Positions 3,517-51,752 of a stretch of 55,262 bases of DNA are shown here, in pieces. The translations under genes were made by a program, and so were the position numbers. The DNA is taken from NCBI GenBank assembly GCA_964404095.1, contig CAYOIN010000001.1, positions 1 to 55,262 of the forward strand, in the 5' to 3' direction. The stretch comes from an uncultured Gammaproteobacteria bacterium (GTDB lineage: Bacteria; Patescibacteriota; Microgenomatia; UBA1406; GWC2-37-13). The notes beneath the pieces are model-generated. The model was not told the DNA's origin and did no database searches. It saw only the letters and a list, made by a program, of their open reading frames with translations. Position 1 is the stretch's first letter. Each line of letters opens with the position of its first letter.

Positions 3517-3592
3517 GGGCCTGTGGCGCAATGGCTAGCGCGTCTCTATGGCATAGAGAAGGTTAGGGGTTCGAGTCCCCTCAGGTCCACCA
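3517..3592 (+). tRNA. tRNA-Ala (anticodon GGC), CCA encoded
   Basis: Hand-folded cloverleaf. Acceptor GGGCCTG/CAGGTCC with a G3:U70 pair, D stem GCGC/GCGC, anticodon stem TCTCT/AGAGA with loop A-T-GGC-A-T, T arm AGGGG-TTCGAGT-CCCCT, 3-prime ACCA. Confidence 0.9.
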
Positions 3593-4987: not shown

Positions 4988-5040
4988 TTTCAGTTAACCC
5001 GCAGATAAAGATCCTTATCGTGGGAAGATCATTTTACTTA

Positions 5041-5069
5041 TTGACAATTTTTTCCCCACCATTTAGTAT
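5041..5069 (+). promoter_or_regulatory. Sigma-70-like promoter (TTGACA-17 nt-TAGTAT)
   Basis: TTGACA 5041-5046, a 17-nt spacer, TAGTAT 5064-5069. The predicted TSS is near G5076/5077, with no ORF downstream. Confidence 0.5.
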
Positions 5070-5075
5070 TTAAGT

Positions 5076-5259
5076 GGACACAATCAATCTGGCGTCTTTT
5101 GACTCAGAGGGTGGGAAGCAATCGTAGATTGTGTCCACCCCACTCTCGGAGTTAACAGACGCCTTTTTGATACCCCGTCTATTCGCGTAGCGAATAAGCG
5201 TGCGGGTACAGAGACGTATACGTGAGTATTAACAAACCCGCAAAAAAATGCGGGTTTTT
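5076..5259 (+). ncRNA. Candidate structured small RNA (~185 nt), family unknown
   Basis: Bounded by the promoter at 5041-5069 and the intrinsic terminator at 5234-5259. Contains a 23-bp helix (5091-5115/5139-5163), a competing perfect 12-bp pairing (5074-5085/5127-5138) and a hairpin at 5180-5196. No ORF of 60 aa or more. Confidence 0.45.
5234..5259. terminator. Rho-independent terminator, potentially bidirectional
   Basis: AAACCCGCA-AAAAAA-TGCGGGTTT stem-loop. It is followed by a T-run (5255-5259) and preceded by an A-run. Confidence 0.6.
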
Positions 5260-5530
5260 GTGGTTTTAGGGCACATTTACATATCGATAGCGGTCAGAGA
5301 GCGTAGGAACGGGATTAAGAGATCATAAAAACATAACGATAAGGAGGGGTTATCAATTTTTATGATTGAGAGGTGATGAAGAGTATGCGCGTAATAATTT
5401 GGGTAATTAAAAAACCCGCCGACGACCTATACATCCTTGAAAATGGGGTATGGCGTAAGCGGGCTTAACAAACAGCAAGCGTAGGATAGCACTTCCTACG
5501 CTTTGTGACCGTTAAATAAGATCAAGATAA

Positions 5531-5603
5531 GCGCCTGTAGCTTAGTTGGAAAAAGCAATTCCATGCTAAGGAAAAGATCAGAGTCCGAGTCTCTGCAGGC
5601 GCG
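5531..5603 (+). tRNA. Atypical tRNA-like gene: anticodon GCU (Ser AGY) on a class I (short variable loop) body
   Basis: Acceptor GCGCCTG/CAGGCGC, D arm GCTT-AGTTGGAAA-AAGC, anticodon arm (A)TTCC-ATGCTAA-GGAA(A), 4-nt variable region AGAT, T arm CAGAG-TCCGAGT-CTCTG, discriminator G, no encoded CCA. Flanks CAAGAT (5523-5528) and ATCTTG (5605-5610) extend the acceptor helix. Confidence 0.6.
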
Positions 5604-5886
5604 CATCTTGCTCTTATCAACGTTTAGAGCCTTCCAGCAAGATATTTTGTAAAAGAGCTTGTTCGGGTCAATATTCTAGCACGTAAAAATCCGCCGGTCA
5701 ACTCTTGGGTGTGTGCGTTGTACACATTGGGCATAATTTCATGTTACATAGGTTGTGATTTTGAGTCAAGCCAATTGTTCAAGTAACCCCTTGTGATACA
5801 ATTTGAGGGTAATTGAGAAGGCGCTTACCAAAGCTCAATACATACTCTTGAATCTGGTTCCAACTTTTAGTGGCAGTGTCCACCGG

Positions 5887-6670: not shown

Positions 6671-8401
6671 TTACTCAATAATTGCTTTCTCGTCATCGGA
6701 GGCGATGACCTTAAACCCTACGTGAGATTGACCCGCGAAGAACAACCCCTCTCCTACTCCTGCCGAGAGTAAGAAATGTCGCTCCCCACCGGTGAGGAAG
6801 AATGTCTTCGTAATTGCGTCTACTGCGGCCGTTGATTGTTTGAGAATGATCTGCAGCGATGAGTTGGTAATAATCGCTTTTCCTTCATTGGTCGCCATAA
6901 AGTCCTCTACGTCCTGCGTAATGGTGGTGAGTCCGAGTTGGTACTTGCGGGATCGCTTCGCGAAGTTGAACAGATACGCTCCTGAGTCGCGATTTTTGAT
7001 AAGATACCATGCCTCATCAACAATAAGTACGCGTTTCTTCTTCGATCGTCGCACGGTATTCCAGATATAGTCGAGCACCATATACATCGCAACCGGTCGA
7101 AGATTCTCCTCGAGATCGCGGATGCCAAAGACCGTAAACTTGTTCTTAATATCAAAGTTCGACTGTTGATTGAAGATCCCTGCAGCCGATCCGCTTACAT
7201 ACTTTTCTAGCCTCCCCGCAAGCTCTTTCCCCTCAGCAGTCTCCATACCTAAGAACACCTTAAACAGATCTTCAAGGAGTGGGGGTTCATTCTTGAAGGT
7301 CGCGTTGTCCTGAGTAATTCCTCGCTGTTGATAGACCGCGACAAGCGCCCGATCAAGAAGCGCGTCCTGCGCTGGAGTGAGATCTCCCATCATGACACGC
7401 ATGAGAGAGTGAAGATCGAGGATCTTATTCTGGAGTTCGTCAGGCTCTGTACTATCGCGTTGTAGCTCAAATGGATTGATCTTGTACTGTGACTTAACCG
7501 AGAACTCCACAAACTCCCCTCCGACCGCGTCTACAAGCTTCTTGTACTCATTTTCAGGGTCCACAATAATCACGTCGACGTCCATCGATAACAGTCGGAG
7601 CGCTTCGAGCTTGACCAAAAAGCTCTTTCCTCCTCCCGACTTCCCAAGAATGACTGCGTTTGCGTTCTCCAGAGTGAATCGGTCAAAGATAATAAGACTG
7701 CTATCGTGTTGATTCACTCCGTACAGAATTCCCTCGTTTCTCGTGAGTGATGCGGTTGAAAATGGGAAGGTCATTGCGAGCGAGGTGCTGTCCATATTGC
7801 GCCACACCCCAAGCTTGTCGTAGAAGAGCGGGAGCGTTGACTTAAATCCCTCCTCCATCTCGAGCGTTGCTGCTCGCGAGACAACCAGCAGCGATGAGAG
7901 CGCCGACTCAACCTGCTTGGTGAGCTGCTCGAGCTGCTCTTTTGAGTTGGCGGGAATGGTAATATAGAGACCGAACTGGAAAAATCGCTCCGCACCCTTT
8001 GCGAGCTCTGCCTGAAGCGCAAGCGCGTCATCGAGGGCGACCTGAACCGTTGGATCAACCACCTTACCGTCTTTGAGATCATTCTCGATTGTGGCCTCCA
8101 TCTCTCCGATCTTACGCTTCAGCTCCTCGAGTACATTCTTTGACTCTGATGGATAGACATACATCGATACATAGAGTGGATGCTCAAAGGTAATGAGTCC
8201 GTACAGCCAGTTTGGTGAAACGTATCGGGGATATCCGGTTACATAGAGTGTCCGATAATACTGATCATCGATCTTGATGTGCTTGAAGTCGACCTCGACA
8301 AATGAAGGAGCGATGATGTCCGCAATTGAGGAGCCCTTCACCTCAAGCGGTGAGGTCGGCGGGCGTGCTTCGTTCTTTTTTTTCTTTGTACCAAAAAACA
8401 T
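6671..8401 (-). CDS. VirB4/TrbE/PrgJ-like type IV secretion ATPase
   Basis: 576 aa. Walker A GKSGGGKS and Walker B VLIVDEAW. The N-terminal region is of VirB4 N-domain type (IKIDDQYYRTLYVTGYPRYVSPNWL). Confidence 0.85.
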   Translation of the reverse strand: MFFGTKKKKNEARPPTSPLEVKGSSIADIIAPSFVEVDFKHIKIDDQYYRTLYVTGYPRYVSPNWLYGLITFEHPLYVSMYVYPSESKNVLEELKRKIGEMEATIENDLKDGKVVDPTVQVALDDALALQAELAKGAERFFQFGLYITIPANSKEQLEQLTKQVESALSSLLVVSRAATLEMEEGFKSTLPLFYDKLGVWRNMDSTSLAMTFPFSTASLTRNEGILYGVNQHDSSLIIFDRFTLENANAVILGKSGGGKSFLVKLEALRLLSMDVDVIIVDPENEYKKLVDAVGGEFVEFSVKSQYKINPFELQRDSTEPDELQNKILDLHSLMRVMMGDLTPAQDALLDRALVAVYQQRGITQDNATFKNEPPLLEDLFKVFLGMETAEGKELAGRLEKYVSGSAAGIFNQQSNFDIKNKFTVFGIRDLEENLRPVAMYMVLDYIWNTVRRSKKKRVLIVDEAWYLIKNRDSGAYLFNFAKRSRKYQLGLTTITQDVEDFMATNEGKAIITNSSLQIILKQSTAAVDAITKTFFLTGGERHFLLSAGVGEGLFFAGQSHVGFKVIASDDEKAIIE

Positions 8402-8409
8402 AGCGTGTA

Positions 8410-9069
8410 TTATTTCGCAACTCCGGTAACAACAGCGCCCGCCATGGTATCGACCGGGGCAAGCTTTTTGTTCGAGGTGTTATGATTAAATAGATTGTAA
8501 TAAAGCTCCGCAAGCTCTTGCTTCATGAGGGGCTTTGCTTTGAGACCGATCTTCATCAGCAATCGGACAACGTTATCACGTTTTGGATAGAGAGCGGCCT
8601 TTGCGCGCGTCACAACATAGTCTTTTTTCAGACCTTTTGTATTGGCTCCGGTAACACCCATCTCGAGAGGACTAAACGGCACAACGAAGAAAAATCGCTT
8701 CTCAAGAACCGTTGTTTTTTTTACGGTGTTTTTAATAAACTCGGTGTAACTGGTGAGCTGTTTTTGGATGAATGGGTCCTTCTGAGACAGGAGCTTTTGC
8801 TGGAGGTAGTTGAGGTACACCGAAATGTCCATCTGTTTCGAAACGATGAGGATCTGTACCGGGAACGAGAGCGAGTTGAGGAGATTGGCATACGACTGAA
8901 TCATCGACTCCTGCTCATCCTGCGAGAGCAGCCAGAAGTTCACCGCGCCGACCTCTACCACCGTCGCGGCAGAAAAGTCCTTGAGGATTACGACATCGTC
9001 TTGGATATCGATAATCTCGGTAAACGACTGTGTGGTGGCTCGGACCGGTGTCTTGTCGGTGTTGCTCAT
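8410..9069 (-). CDS. T4SS-associated protein resembling a VirB4 N-terminal domain, without an ATPase domain
   Basis: 219 aa. FTEIIDIQDDVVILKDFSAATVVEVGAVNFWLLSQDEQESMIQSYANLLNSLSFPVQILIVSK follows the pattern of VirB4/TraC N-termini. Its start overlaps the upstream stop (ATGA at 9066-9069). Confidence 0.55.
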   Translation of the reverse strand: MSNTDKTPVRATTQSFTEIIDIQDDVVILKDFSAATVVEVGAVNFWLLSQDEQESMIQSYANLLNSLSFPVQILIVSKQMDISVYLNYLQQKLLSQKDPFIQKQLTSYTEFIKNTVKKTTVLEKRFFFVVPFSPLEMGVTGANTKGLKKDYVVTRAKAALYPKRDNVVRLLMKIGLKAKPLMKQELAELYYNLFNHNTSNKKLAPVDTMAGAVVTGVAK

Positions 9070-9884
9070 AGTAGTCCTTTCTCCTGTATGGTAATCGGTG
9101 TTGGGTTGGTGTCGCCCAGCGTAATCTGCAAGGGATTAAATAAGTATGATCCTCGGGGATCCTTCGCCTCTAAGGTGTATGGACCGCTTGGTACCGTGGT
9201 AAAGGTGGCAAATACCCCGTTGGGATTTGTTTTGAGTAGTCGCACCGGTGTTCCGGACTCGTTCTTCAGATAAACCAGTACTTCGGGGAGGGCTTTTTGC
9301 TTATTGTTCACCACCGTACCGATAAAAAAGGGCTGCTTGTCCTGCTTCTGCGCTGGGTCTGTTGCTTGAACGGGCGCGGGTTGTGCCATCAACGGTTGTA
9401 CTGGCTCTGCGACAACCTTAGCTGCCTGCGCCGGGGTCACGGCCATCGCGGAAAGGTCGATTGTTTTTGATGCGAGTTCGGTTGCGCCGGCAGCCTTCAT
9501 CTGCAGGTACTGACTCAGCTTAGTTTGCGCATCTTTATGTGCTGCAATCCGATCAGGCGTGTCGGGTTGTGAACTCTGAATGAAGAGTGCGGGATGCCCG
9601 TTGTTTTGATACGCATACTGTGTCGGAGAGGTGAGCCGCTTGTAGAGATTCTGTAGGAATACCTCAAGTGGGCGGTCGTTGACGGGAAGGAAGGCGAGAA
9701 GAACCCCGACCGCAGAAACTGCGGCCGCAGCAACAATGTTTAGAAACGGAACCGGGATCACTTTATAGAGCAAAAACCCGGAGGGGATAAAGATGAGAAG
9801 GTAGATAAACTGATGGAGGGTCATAAACCCAACAAGCTTAAATTCAAAGGTGGTAATTTGGCGTGGAATAGGATGCTGCTCCAT
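9066..9884 (-). CDS. PrgI-family (VirB3-like) T4SS membrane protein with a C-terminal carboxypeptidase-regulatory-like beta-sandwich
   Basis: 272 aa. The N-terminus IPRQITTFEFKLVGFMTLHQFIYLLIF plus a second TM helix is typical of PrgI-family proteins. The C-terminus GTVVNNKQKALPEVLVYLKNESGTPVRLLKTNPNGVFATFTTVPSGPYTLEAKD is CarboxypepD_reg-like. Confidence 0.6.
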   Translation of the reverse strand: MEQHPIPRQITTFEFKLVGFMTLHQFIYLLIFIPSGFLLYKVIPVPFLNIVAAAAVSAVGVLLAFLPVNDRPLEVFLQNLYKRLTSPTQYAYQNNGHPALFIQSSQPDTPDRIAAHKDAQTKLSQYLQMKAAGATELASKTIDLSAMAVTPAQAAKVVAEPVQPLMAQPAPVQATDPAQKQDKQPFFIGTVVNNKQKALPEVLVYLKNESGTPVRLLKTNPNGVFATFTTVPSGPYTLEAKDPRGSYLFNPLQITLGDTNPTPITIQEKGLL

Positions 9885-12111: not shown

Positions 12112-13215
12112 TTACACCTGAATTCTCACCGGCATGATGATGTGAAGAAAGTTCTTTAAGCTGTCGGATCGAAACACTACCGGCGCGTCGGACCTGAGAA
12201 GCTCTATCGTTATTTTTTTGCCCGGTACCGTCTGGAGGAGCTCTAGGAGGAATCGTGCGTTAAAGGCTGCCTGAATTTCCTCTCCTTCGATTTCTGCATC
12301 CTGCGAGGAACTGTTTTCTTCAGCACTGTCGGTTTTTGGCTTTATTGTGAGCGTTCCGTTATCGGCCTTGAAAACAACGATGTTTGATTGTTCTCTCGCA
12401 AAGAGCGACGCAATCTTAATATTTCTCAACAACTCCTCTCTGTCGGTATGTATTGTTTGTTTCTTCTCTATCGGGATAACCTTTTCATATGGCGGAAATG
12501 AACCTTCGATCACACGACTGAAGTAAAGTTTTTGCGCTCCTTTAAACCACACCGTCTGCTCCTTCTCAAGATACCCGAACTCAATCATCCTCTCTTCCTT
12601 CACTCCCTGGAGCACCTCTTCAAGAAAACCTCGAGAAATGAGAACTGAGGGCATATTTTGGGTGTTCTTATCCTTTATTAAGGAGAGTCTAAACCCATCG
12701 GTTGCCACAGTAATTAGATCACCTCCGTTTGAAACAAAGTTGACGCCGGATAGTGCCGGTCGCGACTCGTCTCGTGAGGCGGCAAAGAGAATGAGGGGAA
12801 GGTGTTTTTTAAAGTGCTCGGCATTGAGGGTGAGTGGTTTTTGAGTAATGATCGGTGGTTTAGGAAAATCACCTTCGTCCATAACCGGGAAGGTTCCGTG
12901 GTTCTTCTCTTTCTGTAGGGTGATCTTCTTCTCTTCGACCTTGATTGCAACGTCGCCGGGGGATAACAGGGCGAGGAATTCAGCGATTTTTTTTGGATCA
13001 ACAACCACGCGCACCGATCCCTTGACCGGGAGCTTTGAGGATAGGGTTGTTACAAAGTGGGTGTTTAGGTTTGTAGCAAAGATCTGAACAGACTCCTTCT
13101 CAATTGTGAGAAGTGCACCTTGTAGTGACTGGATGGTAGAAAGGCGTTTGGATGTAAAACGGGATGCGGTTTGTACACCGTCTTGTAGTTGTTCCTTGTC
13201 TAATACTATTTTCAT
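12112..13215 (-). CDS. dnaN: DNA polymerase III beta sliding clamp
   Basis: ORF 12112-13287 trimmed to ATG 13215 (MKIVLDKEQLQDGVQTASRFTSKR...). It has a three-domain clamp length (367 aa) and lies directly downstream of dnaA. Confidence 0.9.
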   Translation of the reverse strand: MKIVLDKEQLQDGVQTASRFTSKRLSTIQSLQGALLTIEKESVQIFATNLNTHFVTTLSSKLPVKGSVRVVVDPKKIAEFLALLSPGDVAIKVEEKKITLQKEKNHGTFPVMDEGDFPKPPIITQKPLTLNAEHFKKHLPLILFAASRDESRPALSGVNFVSNGGDLITVATDGFRLSLIKDKNTQNMPSVLISRGFLEEVLQGVKEERMIEFGYLEKEQTVWFKGAQKLYFSRVIEGSFPPYEKVIPIEKKQTIHTDREELLRNIKIASLFAREQSNIVVFKADNGTLTIKPKTDSAEENSSSQDAEIEGEEIQAAFNARFLLELLQTVPGKKITIELLRSDAPVVFRSDSLKNFLHIIMPVRIQV

Positions 13216-13322: not shown

Positions 13323-14657
13323 CTATGTGGAGAGATGAAGGGTTTGGATCATCCTATCAATCTCTTTTTTAAAAAACTCATCCTTTATTAATCGCTTATT
13401 AATTTTTTCAACACCATGCATAACCGTTGTGTGGTCCTTCCGTTTCAGGAACGTGGCGATGTCCTGGTGCTTCATATCAAGCTCCCTTCGTAGGAGGAAC
13501 ATAACAATCTGGCGTGGAAGTGCGAGGGCCTCAGCGCGTGTCGGACTCTTCAACTGCGACTGCTTAATATTGTAGTACGAACAGACAACGTTCATTATTT
13601 CATGGGGCGTGATCCGGATCTTTGGGCGGTCCTCAGAAACGGTATGGAAGAACTCCTCTACAACGGTAAGGGTTATCTTCTCTCCCCGACCAAGCGTCCG
13701 AGCGTAGATTGAGAGGAGCGTCCCCTCAAGAGAGCGCGTATCGGTTACCTGCTCCGCGATTATGCGAGCCACCTCAATACTGAGTTCAATGTTCTTTTCC
13801 TGCGCTTTGATCAATAGAATTGCGGTTCTCAGCTCAAAATCGGGCGACTGAACATCAACAGTGAGACCACCCGCGAAACGGGAGCGAAGGCGGTCTTCGA
13901 GGTTCTTAATCTCAAGTGGAGGCCGGTCTGAGGTGAAGATTATCTGACCCCCACCCGAAACCACCGCGTTGAAGGTATGAAAAAACTCTTCCTGAACGGT
14001 GTTCTTCCCGGCGATAAACTGAACGTCATCAATAATGAGAAGATTGAGGTTGCGGTACTTCTTGCGAAACTTCGCGGTGTTCTTCTCCCGGATCGACTCA
14101 ATAAGCTCATTCGTGAACTGATCTCCAGGACTAAACACCACCCGTTTCTGAGGGCTATCCGAGAGGATCTTACACGCAACCGCCTGAGCGATATGTGTTT
14201 TCCCAACCCCAACCCCACCATAAAGGAAAAGTGGGTTGTACGCCTTCGATGGATTGTCCGCAACCGCCTGCGCTGCTGCGTACGCCACCTGATTGGAGCC
14301 CGAGACCGCAAAGTTCTCAAAGGTGAATTTACCGTTTAGTCCGGACTTTCGATAGATGTCTTCTTGGGTTGGTTCAAAGGACAGAAGCGGAGCCTCCTTT
14401 ACCTTCTTTGGCTCATGCGTGGCGATCACAACCTCAACCTTGATCGGCTTTTTCGCGAACATCGCCAACCGCTCCTCAATCTCAAGAAGCCTCTTCTGAA
14501 TAAAGAGATAAAAACCCTGACTATCGGTTGAGAGAACTACCGCATGGTCCGAAACCGAGAGGAGGGTGACCTGCTTTAATATCGAAAAAAGGATTGGATT
14601 TTTCTGCGACCCCTCTATTAAAGAGACGATAAAATGATTCCATTCAGCCTCAGACAT
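13323..14657 (-). CDS. dnaA: Chromosomal replication initiator DnaA
   Basis: ORF 13323-14774 trimmed to ATG 14657 (MSEAEWNHF...). Walker A GGVGVGKTH, Walker B LLIIDDVQF, and a C-terminal DNA-binding domain (DHTTVMHGVEKI). The longer ORF would run through the DnaA boxes. Confidence 0.9.
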   Translation of the reverse strand: MSEAEWNHFIVSLIEGSQKNPILFSILKQVTLLSVSDHAVVLSTDSQGFYLFIQKRLLEIEERLAMFAKKPIKVEVVIATHEPKKVKEAPLLSFEPTQEDIYRKSGLNGKFTFENFAVSGSNQVAYAAAQAVADNPSKAYNPLFLYGGVGVGKTHIAQAVACKILSDSPQKRVVFSPGDQFTNELIESIREKNTAKFRKKYRNLNLLIIDDVQFIAGKNTVQEEFFHTFNAVVSGGGQIIFTSDRPPLEIKNLEDRLRSRFAGGLTVDVQSPDFELRTAILLIKAQEKNIELSIEVARIIAEQVTDTRSLEGTLLSIYARTLGRGEKITLTVVEEFFHTVSEDRPKIRITPHEIMNVVCSYYNIKQSQLKSPTRAEALALPRQIVMFLLRRELDMKHQDIATFLKRKDHTTVMHGVEKINKRLIKDEFFKKEIDRMIQTLHLST

Positions 14658-14663
14658 GGTATA

Positions 14664-14703
14664 TGTGGATAACTTATCCACAAATAATAACCACCTATCC
14701 ACA
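14664..14703. promoter_or_regulatory. oriC/dnaA-promoter DnaA-box cluster
   Basis: TGTGGATAA 14664-14672 (perfect, inverted), TTATCCACA 14674-14682 (perfect), cTATCCACA 14695-14703 (8/9). An AT-rich stretch follows at 14700-14725. Confidence 0.75.
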
Positions 14704-14828
14704 ATTATGCAATATATCAAAGTAGGTAGTCTGTAGCACAGAAGCTCCCTTTGATGGTTTGCTCCGCCAATCAACAGGTGGTGTCATCGTATTCTCTACC
14801 GGAAGCCACCATGTGCTATTATTGGGGT

Positions 14829-15446
14829 ATGAACACCTATGTCCTAGACACCAATCTGTTTTTCAATATGGACGCCAAGCTCGGATTCGGCCACACAACA
14901 AAAGAGGTTATAAGTGGTCTCACCGAGGCAATGCGGCGATCGAGTACGTCGAAGCAGTCAAAATTTGTTATGTCGCCTCGAATTGTCGATGAGGTGATGA
15001 GTTTTTTTGATGCGGGCGATGACCAAGGGTTTAAGAATCTCCTACAGTACGTTGAGGTGCGGTCGCCCGACCTTGGAAAAAATCCAGTGCACCTACAGTT
15101 CGTGTATGAGCTCATCGACGACGTTCGAAAACGAAGCTACCGCGGACTACAGATTGCCGAGGAAGAGCTCGAGGAGATGGCACAGCACATGATGGGAAAG
15201 GAATCGCTTCAGAAGAAGGAGTTTCAGATGGCGGTCGGCCCAAAGATTAAAGGATTGCGCGATCGGTACCGTCAGGCGACTCGAGCGGGATTTCTTGATA
15301 GTCTGGCTGATTTTGATCTCCTGGCATTAGCGAAGGAGGAAGCTGGGTATATTGTAACGACTGACGAAGGGGTGAAGCAATGGGGGCGGAAGTTTGGGGT
15401 AAAGGAGATTCTTCCTGAGGTGTTTGTAAAGCAACTGGCGGCCTAG
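14829..15446 (+). CDS. PIN-like protein resembling RNA-free RNase P (HARP; MJ_0950/UPF0278 family)
   Basis: ORF 14751-15446 trimmed to ATG 14829, which has TGcTATTAT 6 nt upstream. 205 aa. MNTYVLDTNLF (D7) and LRDRYRQATRAGFLDSLADFDLLALAKEEAGYIVTTDEG (D157, D161, D179) match my recollection of the HARP acidic tetrad and its spacing. Confidence 0.6.
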   Translation: MNTYVLDTNLFFNMDAKLGFGHTTKEVISGLTEAMRRSSTSKQSKFVMSPRIVDEVMSFFDAGDDQGFKNLLQYVEVRSPDLGKNPVHLQFVYELIDDVRKRSYRGLQIAEEELEEMAQHMMGKESLQKKEFQMAVGPKIKGLRDRYRQATRAGFLDSLADFDLLALAKEEAGYIVTTDEGVKQWGRKFGVKEILPEVFVKQLAA

Positions 15447-15945
15447 ATTCACCCTCATCATTGGGCACAAGCGCAGAGAACCACTCAACAAGGCGATCGG
15501 TCATGGTTTTTTGCGGATCTTCACGATACATTACATGCTTCGCCAGCTGCTCTGAGACGAGATTTTTTGTCGCTGTATCCGGAATAACAAGGTACATATG
15601 GTGATAGAACGGCGGTACGCTCACCAACACCAAGATATCGTACCCAAAGCGATTGGTATAAAAAAAGTATCCAAGATCATCCCACTCAACCACCACACCG
15701 CCGGTTTCAACCCCAAACTTTGTAATGCGATTTTCGATTTCTGGGGGTGGAGTGACGGTAAACACATAGAAAATAAACAACAGCGCGGCAACCGGCACAA
15801 TCACAATTTTGTCACCAAAGAACAGAAGTATAAGTGAGATGAGTACCGCCAACGCGATGTAGAAGCGAATAACCGCCGAACTGCGTCGAATGTACGGCCT
15901 CAGCGGAGCCTTCCACCGGAACAGTATTTGGGGGTTGTCCTGCAT
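15247..15945 (-). CDS. Hypothetical two-TM membrane protein with a P/Q-rich tail
   Basis: 232-aa ORF with two adjacent TM helices (FYIALAVLISLILLFF, VIVPVAALLFIFYVFTV). The last ~65 codons overlap the 3-prime end of the convergent PIN-like gene. Confidence 0.55.
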   Translation of the reverse strand: MQDNPQILFRWKAPLRPYIRRSSAVIRFYIALAVLISLILLFFGDKIVIVPVAALLFIFYVFTVTPPPEIENRITKFGVETGGVVVEWDDLGYFFYTNRFGYDILVLVSVPPFYHHMYLVIPDTATKNLVSEQLAKHVMYREDPQKTMTDRLVEWFSALVPNDEGESRPPVALQTPQEESPLPQTSAPIASPLRQSLQYTQLPPSLMPGDQNQPDYQEIPLESPDGTDRAIL

Positions 15946-19816: not shown

Positions 19817-21115
19817 TTAGCAGACCTCGTTCCCCTTTTTTGCCCATTCGTCTCGCGTAATCTTACAGGACGGGCACTGATTCCCAATCGGACCGGTCGC
19901 CTCTGCACCGCAGTTTGGGCAGACAAAGTTTTTTGACTCATTACTCTTGAGGAGCTGTTGTAGGACGTTGCCCTGAGTAAGCAGTCGATACAGGGAGCTG
20001 GTTGGCTGTACTACCGAATCGATACCGTTCGCAATGCCGAGCAATGCCTCGATATCGCTTCGATTTACCTCGCTCCCACCGCACGCTCCCATGAGTGATA
20101 TCTTTCCATTTGACTGTACCGAAGAGTGGTTGAGAATCAACTGAAGATAGATCTGGGCAAGGGCATTCTTATCGGTAAGTTTGCGAGGGTCAATGGAGTC
20201 TACCAGACGATCGAATTCGTTCGGTTTCTGCTCGTCGAGGTTGTGAAATGCCTCAACGAGCCGCGCGGTCAGGCCGCGCACCGTTAATGGATCGCGGCGC
20301 TGTTCGGCCTTGCCTCGATATACGACACCGTCCTTCCAGTTCTGCGAAGCGAAATCGAGGATCGAGCCGGAAAATGCTCCTGGACTTTGAATGAGGGTAG
20401 TGATTCGATCGTAGTCCGAAAGTGCGGCATCTGCCTCTGCGAATGCCTCAGGAAGGAACTGTCGTATTGCACTCTCACCTTCGGGGTCTACCTTCACGGC
20501 AACGCCGGTAATTTTCTCTCCATCGAAGTTCATGACGTATAGTTGGCCGTAGATAAACGGCACGTTCCGATAGGGATTGTCCAAGCTCTGATCGAGCGTG
20601 GCAGGACCGGCAGGGCTCAACCAAAAGACCGTGGCTTCCGGATTATGAAATAGAATGTCGGTAGCTTTCTTAAACCCGATCTGCGGAGTGCCATCTCGCT
20701 CTCGTGGGTCAAACTGATGTTCGAATCGATGAATCGGCTGTCGGTCGGGGTGATTAAAAACATTCCCCTCACCATCGAAATAATAATGATATCGATGTGA
20801 AACTGGAATGTCGTCCAGCACCTCACCCTTAAAGCCTTCAAGATTGCGCGCGAGCTCTCTCCTGCGTTGCTCGATGTCGAGCTGGGAGAGCCGGAGTGCT
20901 TCATTGGGGTCGAAGCTCAGCGGACCGATGGTCTCACCGACACGTGCAGCTGCGAAGGTTGTAGGAATGGGGGTTCGTCTGTGTTCGAGTGGCGGTGGCA
21001 TAACGGTTTCCCTGCGTCGGGGAACGGACACTATCTGGAGAGTTTTCCGGCTGGTCCTCCGTAGGAGGGTTATACGGTTGCGGCACAGTCGCTGAGTCTC
21101 ACAGCGTTGCCTCAT
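19817..21115 (-). CDS. Hypothetical protein with a C-terminal zinc ribbon
   Basis: 432-aa ORF; an alternative ATG at 21001 would remove the Arg-rich first 38 aa. C-terminal CPNCG-x13-CPSC. No other motif recognised. Confidence 0.55.
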   Translation of the reverse strand: MRQRCETQRLCRNRITLLRRTSRKTLQIVSVPRRRETVMPPPLEHRRTPIPTTFAAARVGETIGPLSFDPNEALRLSQLDIEQRRRELARNLEGFKGEVLDDIPVSHRYHYYFDGEGNVFNHPDRQPIHRFEHQFDPRERDGTPQIGFKKATDILFHNPEATVFWLSPAGPATLDQSLDNPYRNVPFIYGQLYVMNFDGEKITGVAVKVDPEGESAIRQFLPEAFAEADAALSDYDRITTLIQSPGAFSGSILDFASQNWKDGVVYRGKAEQRRDPLTVRGLTARLVEAFHNLDEQKPNEFDRLVDSIDPRKLTDKNALAQIYLQLILNHSSVQSNGKISLMGACGGSEVNRSDIEALLGIANGIDSVVQPTSSLYRLLTQGNVLQQLLKSNESKNFVCPNCGAEATGPIGNQCPSCKITRDEWAKKGNEVC

Positions 21116-21171
21116 CCAAACAAATTACAAACCCTTATACGATACTCCACACTGTGTGAAAATGCAATCAA

Positions 21172-34595: not shown

Positions 34596-34626
34596 CAAAC
34601 GCAGGAGTTTTTGAGGTCTATTTTCT

Positions 34627-34645
34627 CCCAAATTTGGGATTTTAT
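34627..34645 (+). terminator. Weak terminator candidate after rny
   Basis: The palindrome CCCAAATTTGGG (34627-34638) is followed by ATTTTATT. Confidence 0.35.
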
Positions 34646-34663
34646 TCTTCCTTTTGCTATGCT

Positions 34664-34690
34664 CTAAATCAAAACAAGCATTTGATTTAG
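34664..34690. repeat. Perfect 10-bp inverted repeat
   Basis: CTAAATCAAA-ACAAGCA-TTTGATTTAG with no U-run after it. Either a hairpin or a protein-binding palindrome. Confidence 0.6.
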
Positions 34691-34856
34691 ATTGATCTAC
34701 TCCGATCAATTAAATATAGATTGACACAACAATAAAAAAATACTATTCTGTTCGTGATTTCTTGTTGTGACAATTAAAAGTTTATGAAGAGTTATAAATA
34801 GGCTATTGCACCGGCCTATTTTTTGTATCACGGTGTAAGAAGGGAGGTGATTGTAC

Positions 34857-35129
34857 ATGACAAAAGCAGACTTAGTAGCACAGGTAGCTAAAAAGGCAGG
34901 CTTGACCTCAAAAGCAGCAAAGGATGCAGTAAACACTGTTTTCTCATCAATCACCGCTGCAATGAAAAGAGGAGAAAAAGTAGTGGTTACTGGTTTCGGC
35001 ACATTTATGGTGCGACGACGCGCTTCTCGTAAGGGTCGCAATCCACAAACCGGAGCTGAAATTCAGATCCCATCAACCAAGACGCCAGGATTTACCGCTG
35101 GTAAATCATTGAAGCGAATGGTGAAGTAA
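34857..35129 (+). CDS. hup: Nucleoid protein HU
   Basis: 90 aa. MTKADLVAQVAKKAGLTSKAAKDAVNTVF...GFGTF..R.R.AR.GRNPQTG..I.I. GGAGG (34843-34847) lies 9 nt upstream of ATG 34857. Confidence 0.9.
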   Translation: MTKADLVAQVAKKAGLTSKAAKDAVNTVFSSITAAMKRGEKVVVTGFGTFMVRRRASRKGRNPQTGAEIQIPSTKTPGFTAGKSLKRMVK

Positions 35130-35151
35130 TCCGCCACCGGCGAGATTAGAG

Positions 35152-35188
35152 AACAACCCCGCGGTCGTGTTGCGGGGTTGTTTTATTC
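35152..35188 (+). terminator. Rho-independent terminator of hup
   Basis: AACAACCCCGC-loop-GCGGGGTTGTT followed by TTTATT. Confidence 0.75.
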
Positions 35189-35212
35189 TGTAGTGGTCGA
35201 GTATAATTATGT

Positions 35213-38680: not shown

Positions 38681-39069
38681 TGGTGGAGATGGGGGGAGTT
38701 GAACCCCCGTCTGAAGAAACACGAGTACAAAGGTTTAGTTAGAGATAGCGTATTTTCTCTTCATGTTGCGGTGAGGCAATACACAAACTCTTTCGCAACG
38801 ATCAGTTATGGGTTTTCAACTTCATCACCAACTGAAAACGTGATGTCGTCATACCTTGATTGGTTTACCCCACGTATGCATTAAATCAAGGAAAATGCAC
38901 GGTGAGAATTCAACAGCACTTAGGCTGCATAGGCGAATGCGTATGCATTGCGATAAGCGGCTGCTTCCATTGCTTCCATTTCGTCAGCAGTTAGTATTTC
39001 CCGAGTGTCGTTCCGGTACGCCCTAACCTTTTGTAAAAGTGCAGTTCCTCGTCGATTCTATACATCCCC
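38681..39069 (-). ncRNA. ssrA: tmRNA (SsrA), one-piece
   Basis: 5-prime GGGGAUGUAUAGAAUCGACGAGG and 3-prime GACGGGGGUUCAACUCCCCCCAUCUCCACCA, with a G3:U70 acceptor. The predicted tag ORF is at 38920-38988 (ADEMEAMEAAAYRNAYAFAYAA-stop; the resume codon is inferred). It starts 4 nt after the smpB stop. Confidence 0.9.
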
Positions 39070-39072
39070 TGT

Positions 39073-39522
39073 TCATCGCTTCATCCATTCTTTTGCTTCT
39101 CGGTTATCGTGTCGTTCGATCTTTTTCTTCTTCTCGAGCTTTCGTTTTTCAATGTCTTTTCGTCCCCTTACAAGAGCGATTTCTATTTTGATTAACGCAC
39201 CCTTATTATAACACGAAACAGGGGCAATAGTAAGTCCGGACGCTCCGTGTAGCTTCGTTTGCAGGCGTATCAGTTCATCCTTTCGGATGAGGAGTTTTCG
39301 TGTTCGCTTTGGTTCCTGGGTGGCTCGAGGCGCATACTGATACGGATAGATATCTGCATTCACAAGAAAGAGCTCTCCCTGCAGGAGCTTCACATGCGCA
39401 CTATCAATATTCATCTTTTCTTCGCGTATAGACTTTACCTCGGGACCGGTGAGTACGACACCTGCCTCATAGGTTTCGAGGACCTCAAAGTCACGCTGCA
39501 ACTTTCGATTCACGATTTTCAT
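39073..39522 (-). CDS. smpB: SsrA-binding protein SmpB
   Basis: 149 aa. NRKLQRDFEVLETYEAGVVLTGPEVKSIR ... RTRKLL fits the SmpB pattern, and the gene is adjacent to ssrA. Confidence 0.9.
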   Translation of the reverse strand: MKIVNRKLQRDFEVLETYEAGVVLTGPEVKSIREEKMNIDSAHVKLLQGELFLVNADIYPYQYAPRATQEPKRTRKLLIRKDELIRLQTKLHGASGLTIAPVSCYNKGALIKIEIALVRGRKDIEKRKLEKKKKIERHDNREAKEWMKR

Positions 39523-44501: not shown

Positions 44502-44849
44502 ATGATTGGACTTGCGGCTCCCGTCTACGCCCAGGGCGTACGGGACTGGGGATCATGCGTTGTTAACGGCATTCCTACCTTACAGTGCTTTGAGGTAATT
44601 TTTGGGAACATTGTTTTTATGTTCTCGACCTTGATTGTATTTTCACTTCTCGTGATGATCATTACCGGAGCATTTCAGTACCTTACCTCCTTTGGAGATC
44701 CAGGAAAAATTAAGAAGGCTCAGGCAACTCTCCGTTTCGCCATTGTGGGGTTTATCCTCTTTGTTTCGTCGTTCCTCATTCTGAAAATTATCGACGTTCT
44801 CTTCCTTGGGAATCACGGAATCCTGTTTGAACTCAACCTCGGGTCCTAA
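44502..44849 (+). CDS. T4SS pilin-like small membrane protein (paralog)
   Basis: 115 aa with the same layout: TM - SFGDPGKIKKAQATLR loop - TM. It starts 3 nt after the previous stop. Confidence 0.55.
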   Translation: MIGLAAPVYAQGVRDWGSCVVNGIPTLQCFEVIFGNIVFMFSTLIVFSLLVMIITGAFQYLTSFGDPGKIKKAQATLRFAIVGFILFVSSFLILKIIDVLFLGNHGILFELNLGS

Positions 44850-45943: not shown

Positions 45944-45972
45944 GAACATATTGTAGCAAACTCAAGCGCGTG

Positions 45973-46043
45973 TTACGGGGCCGGGAGTTGAACCACGGCC
46001 TAGGAGATTATGAGCCTCCTGTGCAACCGTACACTACCCCGTA
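45973..46043 (-). tRNA. tRNA with CAU anticodon (elongator Met or Ile2 type), irregular T stem
   Basis: Minus strand: TACGGGG-TA-GTGT-ACGGTT-GCAC-A-GGAGG-CTCATAA-TCTCC-TAGG-CCG(T)GG-TTCAACT-CCCGG-CCCCGTA-A. It has a U1-A72 pair, a 6-nt D loop and a bulged T in the T stem. CCA is not encoded. Confidence 0.6.
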
Positions 46044-51594: not shown

Positions 51595-51694
51595 TTCTTT
51601 TATCAAGAGTGCGGAGAGAGATTTGGCTCGATGATCCGCCGGCAACCTGACTGCGCTCGCAGAGAAGGTGCTCCAACCAAAGTCGATGGGAGAG
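51595..51694 (+). promoter_or_regulatory. SAM-I (S-box) riboswitch aptamer
   Basis: UUAUCAAGAG-UGCGGAGAGAGAUUUGGCUCGAUGAUCCGCCGGCAACC...AAGGUGCUCCAACC...GAUGGGAGAG. P1 is 51595-51604 paired with 51685-51694 (with G-U pairs). It has the GAUGA k-turn motif, the GCAACC and GGUGCU blocks, and sits upstream of metK. Confidence 0.8.
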
Positions 51695-51752
51695 TCTTAG
51701 ATATTCATCGAACCGATTGATAACAGACGCATTATTCATTTCATATTTTTGT

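Follow-up and report, generated by a model that had tools for sequence, protein, structure and literature searches.

A HARP-family (protein-only RNase P) gene beside dnaA, conserved across a clade of Candidate Phyla Radiation bacteria

The stretch of DNA analysed here, referred to as the window, comprises 55,262 nucleotides (nt) of contig CAYOIN010000001.1, and at positions 14829-15446 of its forward strand lies an open reading frame (ORF) of 205 amino acids (aa) which, from the ORF list, profile matches, predicted fold and ratio of nonsynonymous to synonymous substitution rates (dN/dS), was assigned to HARP (PIN_5/TIGR03875), the family of RNA-free, protein-only ribonuclease P (RNase P). The ORF begins with an ATG at 14829 and its stop codon ends at 15446. 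Re-translation gave the same N-terminus, MNTYVLDTNLF, and the same C-terminal block as had been quoted in a first-pass annotation made from the letters alone. An alternative in-frame ATG at 14811, giving a product of 211 aa, was chosen by a public gene caller; as almost all homologs open with M-x-x-[YF]-[VI]-L-D-T-N in the alignment, and as a relative with 91% identity (L005) has in-frame stops within 12 nt before the corresponding ATG, the start at 14829 is the conserved one and was kept. The exact 205-aa product matched no recorded protein, and the 211-aa form occurs only on Logan contigs of less than 2.4 kb. The codon of Asp7, the first catalytic acidic residue, lies at 14847-14849; the 'DSxxD' active-site motif, D157-S158-L-A-D161, is encoded at 15297-15311 (D157 at 15297-15299 and D161 at 15309-15311), and the codon of Asp179, within an invariant D-E-G, is at 15363-15365, all on the forward strand.

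The earlier assignment of the product to HARP was borne out by two profiles above their curated cut-offs: Pfam PIN_5 (PF08745) matched residues 4-203 along profile positions 2-200 of 205 (E = 6e-38; 130.7 bits, cut-off 27), and the 205-aa product scored 131.8 bits against NCBIfam TIGR03875 (cut-off 95.3). When all PDB sequences were searched, seven matches only were significant, every one an 'RNA-free ribonuclease P' (E from 1.4e-22 to 1.5e-17), and the six that were identified came from Planctomycetes bacterium GWF2_40_8, Aquifex aeolicus, Hydrogenobacter thermophilus, Thermococcus celer and Halorhodospira halophila. Both in the alignments to these PDB matches and in a MAFFT alignment, D7, D157, D161 and D179 of the query shared columns with D7, D138, D142 and D160 of Aquifex (S158 aligning with S139), and the catalytic numbering that the first-pass annotation had given for the Aquifex enzyme was found to be correct. 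The tetrad, together with R100, R144, R148, R152, Y147 and S158, was invariant across the Aquifex, Planctomycetes and clade sequences, and among 33 aligned clade sequences the four Asp residues, S158, R100, R102, R144, R146, R148 and R152 (query numbering) did not vary.

An AlphaFold2 monomer model built from 33 sequences (mean pLDDT 87.5, pTM 0.78) displayed a PIN-like core with a long hairpin of two helices (residues 89-121 and 129-151) and a C-terminal helix at residues 196-204. Searching this model against the PDB with Foldseek returned HARP chains for all of the top 34 matches, the best being 8kda_E (E = 2.6e-15, TM-scores 0.84/0.91), a chain of a HARP:pre-tRNA cryo-electron microscopy structure onto which the model superposes; the predicted fold agrees with the solved HARPs. 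The protruding (PrH, or spike-helix) hairpin, as delimited by the predicted helices and the alignment, spans residues 89-151, encoded at 15093-15281 on the forward strand. At its tip is a clade-specific extension of approximately 13 residues (about 118-131, AQHMMGKESLQKKE.., encoded at 15180-15221 on the same strand), which stands opposite a gap in the PDB sequences, is not present in the Aquifex and Planctomycetes HARPs, and is conserved within the clade as MMGKExLxKKEFQM, the FQM flanking AQHMMGKESLQKKE being part of the motif. By alignment, R100, R144, R148 and R152 correspond to Aquifex R94, R125, R129 and R133 and all four are invariant in the clade, with four of the five basic residues in the Aquifex R94/R102/R125/R129/R133 set thereby kept in the query. 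The helix at 196-204 is the predicted counterpart of the C-terminal helix required for oligomerisation of the Aquifex enzyme, Aq_880 (PMC9945441). In its family membership, catalytic residues and fold, the gene at 14829-15446 is a real, intact HARP homolog.

A PIN-like N-terminus with acidic residues is also what an ordinary VapC-type PIN toxin would offer, or what might be read into a spurious ORF, but the chance that the gene is either is vanishingly small. The product is 205 aa long and includes the HARP-specific two-helix insertion, whereas a VapC-type PIN domain has roughly 130-150 aa; it matches the HARP models PIN_5 and TIGR03875 along its full length, and VapC structures were reached by Foldseek only at E>1e-3 with TM-scores of about 0.4. 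No antitoxin-sized gene is adjacent, the neighbours being dnaA and a membrane protein gene, and dN/dS is 0.05. The family-model and fold results rule out a VapC-type toxin or spurious ORF, and the PIN_5 match together with the low dN/dS excludes a chance ORF.

Comparison of the gene with its two closest relatives gave dN/dS values of 0.04-0.05 at a dS of about 1.1, and scanning one genome per GTDB species found relatives encoded in at least 165 genomes. The closest database proteins that bear a taxon name (up to 92% identity) are from the Microgenomates group or Candidatus Roizmanbacteria, and these named relatives are already annotated as 'RNA ligase partner protein' (TIGR03875). Among the best 80 of the 165, the titles with an informative taxon were Roizmanbacteria, Microgenomates or Patescibacteria; about half of the same 80 were titled 'uncultured Gammaproteobacteria', which we read as a placeholder on metagenome-assembled genomes (MAGs) from a binning pipeline, and the few sources given in record titles were groundwater or lake water. 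The family as a whole is small: of 1.84 billion representatives clustered at 50% identity, no more than 145 matched at E<=1e-3, 15 of them at E<=1e-30. The nearest complete genome, CP064967.1 (928,688 bp), encodes a HARP protein of 66% identity and shares the gene order of the window, with type IV secretion genes, S1, xer, dnaN, dnaA, HARP, SpoIID, acyltransferase, thioredoxin and ribonucleotide reductase (RNR). The host is an uncultured, ultra-small Microgenomates/Roizmanbacteria bacterium belonging to the Candidate Phyla Radiation (CPR), with a genome of approximately 1 Mb, and its HARP gene is under strong purifying selection and vertically conserved clade-wide.

As had been described from the letters, the gene is divergent from dnaA, an ORF of 444 aa from MSEAEWNH at 13323-14657 on the reverse strand (its orthologs in related loci L001-L004 match Bac_DnaA and Bac_DnaA_C), and 3' of dnaA lies dnaN (12112-13215, reverse strand). 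The 171-nt spacer at 14658-14828 contains three DnaA boxes clustered within 40 nt at 14664-14703, two of them perfect TTATCCACA copies and one with a single mismatch; these two are the only perfect TTATCCACA boxes in the window, and the same cluster is kept in L005. A simple scan of the spacer gave no sigma-70-like site on the forward strand, and no clear switch in GC skew was seen at 2-kb resolution. The cluster is probably a dnaA autoregulatory region or an element of oriC.

The first-pass annotation had also placed the gene in a 'slot' beside dnaA that is normally held by rpmH-rnpA, and this was not supported by comparison with related loci. Approximately 20 loci, the window included, share the order dnaN<-dnaA<- ->HARP, but 24 loci from related species have an inverted dnaA-dnaN block, which gives a co-directional dnaA->dnaN->HARP order, and 27 loci have no dnaA within 10 kb of HARP (one such locus that was sampled has NrdR and an RNR-sized ORF upstream instead). 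The link between HARP and dnaA is a clade synteny with the dnaA-dnaN block and not a fixed slot. In about a dozen of the 24 co-directional loci the HARP ATG lies 1 nt past the dnaN stop, which implies co-transcription and co-expression at housekeeping level.

No RNA-ligase family was found in Pfam scans of nearly all ORFs of the window. Within 5 kb of HARP, the neighbours in the loci examined were dnaA, dnaN, xer, S1, NrdR/RNR, SpoIID, acyltransferase and thioredoxin genes, along with a transporter and some short ORFs outside the scan, and among the scanned neighbours in the window and the sampled relatives there was no Rnl3-type ligase gene (PF18330/TIGR01209) within about 5 kb. An ORF on the reverse strand at 15247-15945, predicted as a membrane protein of 232 aa with no Pfam match, converges on HARP and overlaps the HARP 3' end by 200 nt; the overlapping tail is of low complexity and gene callers disagree in this region among relatives. 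As a partner of HARP it was rejected, the overlap being antisense read-through and the apparent conservation there a shadow of the HARP C-terminus.

The absence of rnpA, rpmH and RNase P RNA from the window, another observation of the first-pass annotation, was upheld by Rfam, motif, phmmer and Pfam searches. RNase P RNA was not found in the window by Rfam, whether at the gathering score or at E<=10, and neither rnpA nor rpmH was found by six-frame motif searches, by phmmer queries of L34 and RnpA from E. coli and B. subtilis against all six-frame ORFs, or by Pfam on nearly all ORFs of at least 82 aa. As the window is only about 5% of a genome of approximately 1 Mb, absence within it says little. 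Two gaps were considered as sites of a diverged rnpB and rejected: that at 34596-35212 is occupied by a gene for an HU-family protein, and that at 4988-5530 holds a hairpin and terminator without RNase P motifs. Relatives were sampled as 20-kb flanks, with around 1.3 Mb from about 80 related species entering the phmmer searches; because these flanks are syntenic, they sample few independent regions of the genome. Rfam on 18 of the related loci recovered tRNAs, tmRNA and cobalamin riboswitches only.

The tRNA genes were examined for an A at position -1, which is found in 38 of 44 tRNAs (86%) in Aquifex and in 15 of 49 (31%) in Thermodesulfatator indicus, which has both enzymes; in HARP-only organisms of the Aquificaceae type, tRNA genes co-evolved with the enzyme also lack a G-C pair joining -1 to 73. 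An A at -1 was present in 2 of 4 tRNAs of the window and in 12 of 24 of a clade sample, mostly orthologous tRNA-Ala and tRNA-Lys; this share is nearer to that of T. indicus than to that of Aquifex, on a sample of 24 that is non-independent and too small. The tRNA-Ala(GGC) gene at 3517-3592, likewise that of L022, encodes its 3'-CCA, and the other sampled tRNA genes do not; this bears on HARP, since precursors carrying CCA are cleaved more slowly by HARP (PMC12153264).

Compared with the enzymes of Aquifex aeolicus (Aq_880) and Hydrogenobacter thermophilus (7F3E, 8KD9, 8KDA, 8SSF), the query has about 30-36% full-length identity, the four catalytic Asp residues, the equivalents of R94, R125, R129 and R133, and the same PIN core, hairpin and C-terminal helix (TM-scores 0.81-0.84 by query and 0.87-0.91 by target), but it differs in its longer tip (by about 13 residues) and in a Gln, or a variable residue, at the R102 equivalent. 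Those two hosts are hyperthermophiles, whereas the host of the query is a CPR bacterium with a genome of about 1 Mb, and lack of rnpA and rnpB and tRNA genes rich in A(-1) are features of those organisms. The best sequence match among solved HARPs (E = 1.4e-22) is that of Planctomycetes bacterium GWF2_40_8 (7E8K/7E8O), also an uncultured bacterium and available as a metagenome assembly only; this protein was one of four purified HARPs tested for cleavage of the pre-tRNA 5' end, an activity headed as conserved, and it is reported to bind the tRNA elbow via its hairpin and to be dimeric in vitro (PMC9051087). Its hairpin is shorter than the query's, and it retains an equivalent of R102. HARPs of bacteria that also have an RNA-based RNase P (Thermodesulfatator indicus, Halorhodospira halophila, Thioalkalivibrio and Methylacidiphilum; 7OG5 matching at E = 1.5e-17) belong to the same family, and possession of both enzymes is likely to be the genomic situation of the query host as well. 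These bacteria are extremophiles in which HARP is patchy and usually has an Rnl3 ligase gene within 5 kb (PMC12153264), in contrast to the clade studied here, where HARP occurs clade-wide and is tied to dnaA-dnaN, with no ligase gene found in the window or the neighbours examined. The name 'RNA ligase partner protein' derives from adjacency to a ligase in archaea, an adjacency that does not apply here.

Taken together, our preferred interpretation, at a probability of roughly 60%, is that the gene codes for a genuine HARP-family enzyme maintained by selection, whose activity is most likely a second or back-up one beside, and not in place of, an RNA-based RNase P with its genes beyond the window. 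By analogy with solved HARP:pre-tRNA complexes, it would be expressed from the origin-proximal dnaA-dnaN neighbourhood and its protomers would dimerise via the two-helix hairpin (PMC12217051, PMC9051087), the dimers then assembling into higher oligomers with the aid of the C-terminal helix. In a 'recognition' dimer the hairpin arginines R144 and R148 would grip the T-loop and elbow of the pre-tRNA, and an adjacent 'catalytic' dimer would set the -1/+1 phosphodiester into the PIN-type two-metal site of D7, D157, D161 and D179, with R100 and R152 near the cleavage site, so that the 5' leader is predicted to be removed. HARP activity requires assembly into tetramers to dodecamers, and removal of pre-tRNA 5' leaders by HARPs is Mg2+-dependent; oligomerisation and pre-tRNA cleavage of this kind may be expected in vivo from those same complexes.

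Co-existence with rnpB and rnpA appears most likely, well ahead of replacement, because RNase P RNA was reported in 35 of 35 circular CPR genomes, including all 11 circularised Microgenomatia (Lui et al. 2021, PMC8172020), because RnpA is present in most HARP-bearing bacteria (Daniels et al., PMC6380272), and, small as their sample is, because of the A(-1) counts given above. Some CPR RNase P RNAs are recovered only below Rfam thresholds and some are without P12 (PMC8172020), and HARP is weak or dispensable in most organisms carrying both enzymes (PMC9945441, PMC12153264). Several observations weigh against the preferred interpretation. Across the window and 86 loci (1.39 Mb), phmmer found neither rnpA nor rpmH beyond noise, also with its filters off, and Rfam, which took in the window plus 18 loci (about 0.34 Mb), did not find RNase P RNA, nor did a motif-pair screen for conserved regions I and V in the remaining loci. 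In the hairpin, Aquifex R102, an elbow-binding residue termed highly conserved whose Ala mutant is severely impaired in pre-tRNA binding (PMC12217051), is replaced by Q108 and the position varies within the clade, Aquifex R109 aligns with E115, and the tip exceeds by some 13 residues that of the solved HARPs, a difference that may bear on elbow binding or on the distance-measuring 'molecular ruler'. In addition, four of five HARPs from dual-enzyme bacteria were weak or inactive in vitro (PMC9945441).

The last of these points, together with archaeal HARP knock-outs that have no phenotype (PMC12153264), would suit a HARP-fold nuclease whose main substrate in vivo is something other than the 5' leader of pre-tRNA, for example in trimming of 3' trailers, which Aquifex HARP also cuts (PMC12217051), in cleavage of other structured RNAs, or in condition-specific RNA repair or turnover. 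The unkept R102 equivalent and the extended hairpin fit such a role, but the catalytic residues and the main tRNA contacts (the R125, R129 and R133 equivalents) are invariant, the closest solved relative is among the HARPs reported to cleave pre-tRNA (PMC9051087), and the ligase partner that has been proposed for alternative roles is not nearby; we regard a different main substrate as possible but doubtful. Less probable again, and in our view unlikely, is a lineage that depends mainly or wholly on HARP for RNase P activity, in which rnpA, and perhaps rnpB, would have been lost or be decaying, as in Aquificaceae, and HARP would have taken over beside dnaA at the usual place of rpmH-rnpA. The window without rnpA, rpmH and rnpB and the flanks of about 80 species without rnpA and rpmH are what such a lineage would show. 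Other Patescibacteria often have RnpA and RpmH close to dnaA and virB4 (PMC12102498), and neither is seen in the same type IV secretion-dnaN-dnaA neighbourhood here. Such a lineage is also consistent with retention of HARP under strong purifying selection in at least 165 species with genomes of about 1 Mb, with its operon coupling to dnaN in many loci, with the often reduced RNase P RNAs of CPR bacteria (PMC8172020) and with the 'unclassified bacteria' noted as HARP-only by Daniels et al. (PMC6380272). Those 2019 calls, however, came from draft genomes in which the RnpA protein alone was looked for, the syntenic flanks amount to few independent regions, RNase P RNA was present in every circular Microgenomatia genome examined (PMC8172020), and no Aquifex-like A(-1) bias was seen in the small tRNA sample. 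A HARP that acts beside an RNA-based RNase P is the interpretation we retain.

Several other features of the window were recorded. At 6671-9884 on the reverse strand, genes for type IV secretion (a VirB4-like ATPase, a TraC-like and a PrgI-like protein) adjoin S1-xer-dnaN-dnaA, an origin-proximal placement that agrees with the arrangement reported for Patescibacteria (PMC12102498), and a pilin-like gene of such a system is found 30 kb from the others, at 44502-44849 on the forward strand. Two tRNA genes are unusual. The tRNA-Ser(GCU) at 5531-5604 (forward strand; ARAGORN, Rfam tRNA 58.9 bits) has 74 nt, no long variable arm, a 4-bp anticodon stem and a discriminator G, and is atypical for a bacterial tRNA-Ser; the tRNA-Met(CAU) at 45972-46043 (reverse strand; Rfam 43 bits) has 72 nt, a D stem of 3 bp and a mismatched T stem, and its first pair is U1-A72. 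Upstream of the former is a 540-nt gene-free gap (4988-5530, forward strand) with a long hairpin, GTGGACACAATC...GATTGTGTCCAC, especially at 5070-5260, followed by a terminator-like aaacccgc-aaaaaaa-gcgggttttt; Rfam gave no family there beyond a Leu_leader noise match of 20 bits, and the hairpin may be an unannotated small RNA. The HU-family DNA-binding protein gene (MTKADLVAQVAKKAGL...) lies at 34858-35130 on the forward strand, where the longest-ORF heuristic took an antisense ORF of 111 aa instead. A sub-threshold AdoCbl-II riboswitch match (21044-21131, reverse strand; 27 bits against a gathering score of 36.5) precedes a 432-aa ORF with no Pfam match, near a cobalamin adenosyltransferase gene and an RNR-sized ORF, and clear cobalamin riboswitches (RF00174, 34-64 bits) occur at an apparently corresponding position in relatives such as L025 (1558-1712), L017 (4721-4877) and L029 (5427-5572). 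On the reverse strand, tmRNA (38681-39069) is directly beside smpB (39073-39522), and an S-adenosylmethionine riboswitch at 51597-51726 on the forward strand is upstream of a metK-like gene that is shortened (334 aa).

The HARP family is already known, and the name of TIGR03875 is already on public MAG records; what is new is the genomic context and an overlooked CPR clade. Bacterial HARP is described in current surveys as rare. A survey in 2025 counted 178 bacterial genomes with HARP in a few, mostly extremophile, orders, with an Rnl3 ligase encoded in 89% of HARP-positive genomes and co-localised in 80% of bacterial cases, and its supplementary table has no Patescibacteria (Seshadri & Gopalan 2025, PMC12153264); in the literature searched, no paper ties Roizmanbacteria, Microgenomates or Patescibacteria to protein-only RNase P. 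The HARP gene described here extends the reach of the protein-only RNase P family to a species-rich CPR clade and weakens the generalisations of an 'extreme environment' and a 'ligase partner' for HARP. If both enzymes are present in these bacteria, this would be an ordinary extension of a known family. If, as we think unlikely, the clade relies mainly or solely on HARP for tRNA 5' maturation, with rnpA lost and rnpB lost or degenerate, bacteria would have moved from RNA-based to protein-only RNase P a second time and independently, in a much larger lineage, in non-extreme habitats and with the gene built into the dnaA-dnaN locus at the normal place of rpmH-rnpA. The small genomes, and the reduced RNase P RNAs of some relatives, also lend themselves to a natural test of the part that HARP plays in processing tRNA 5' ends, whether shared or taken over.

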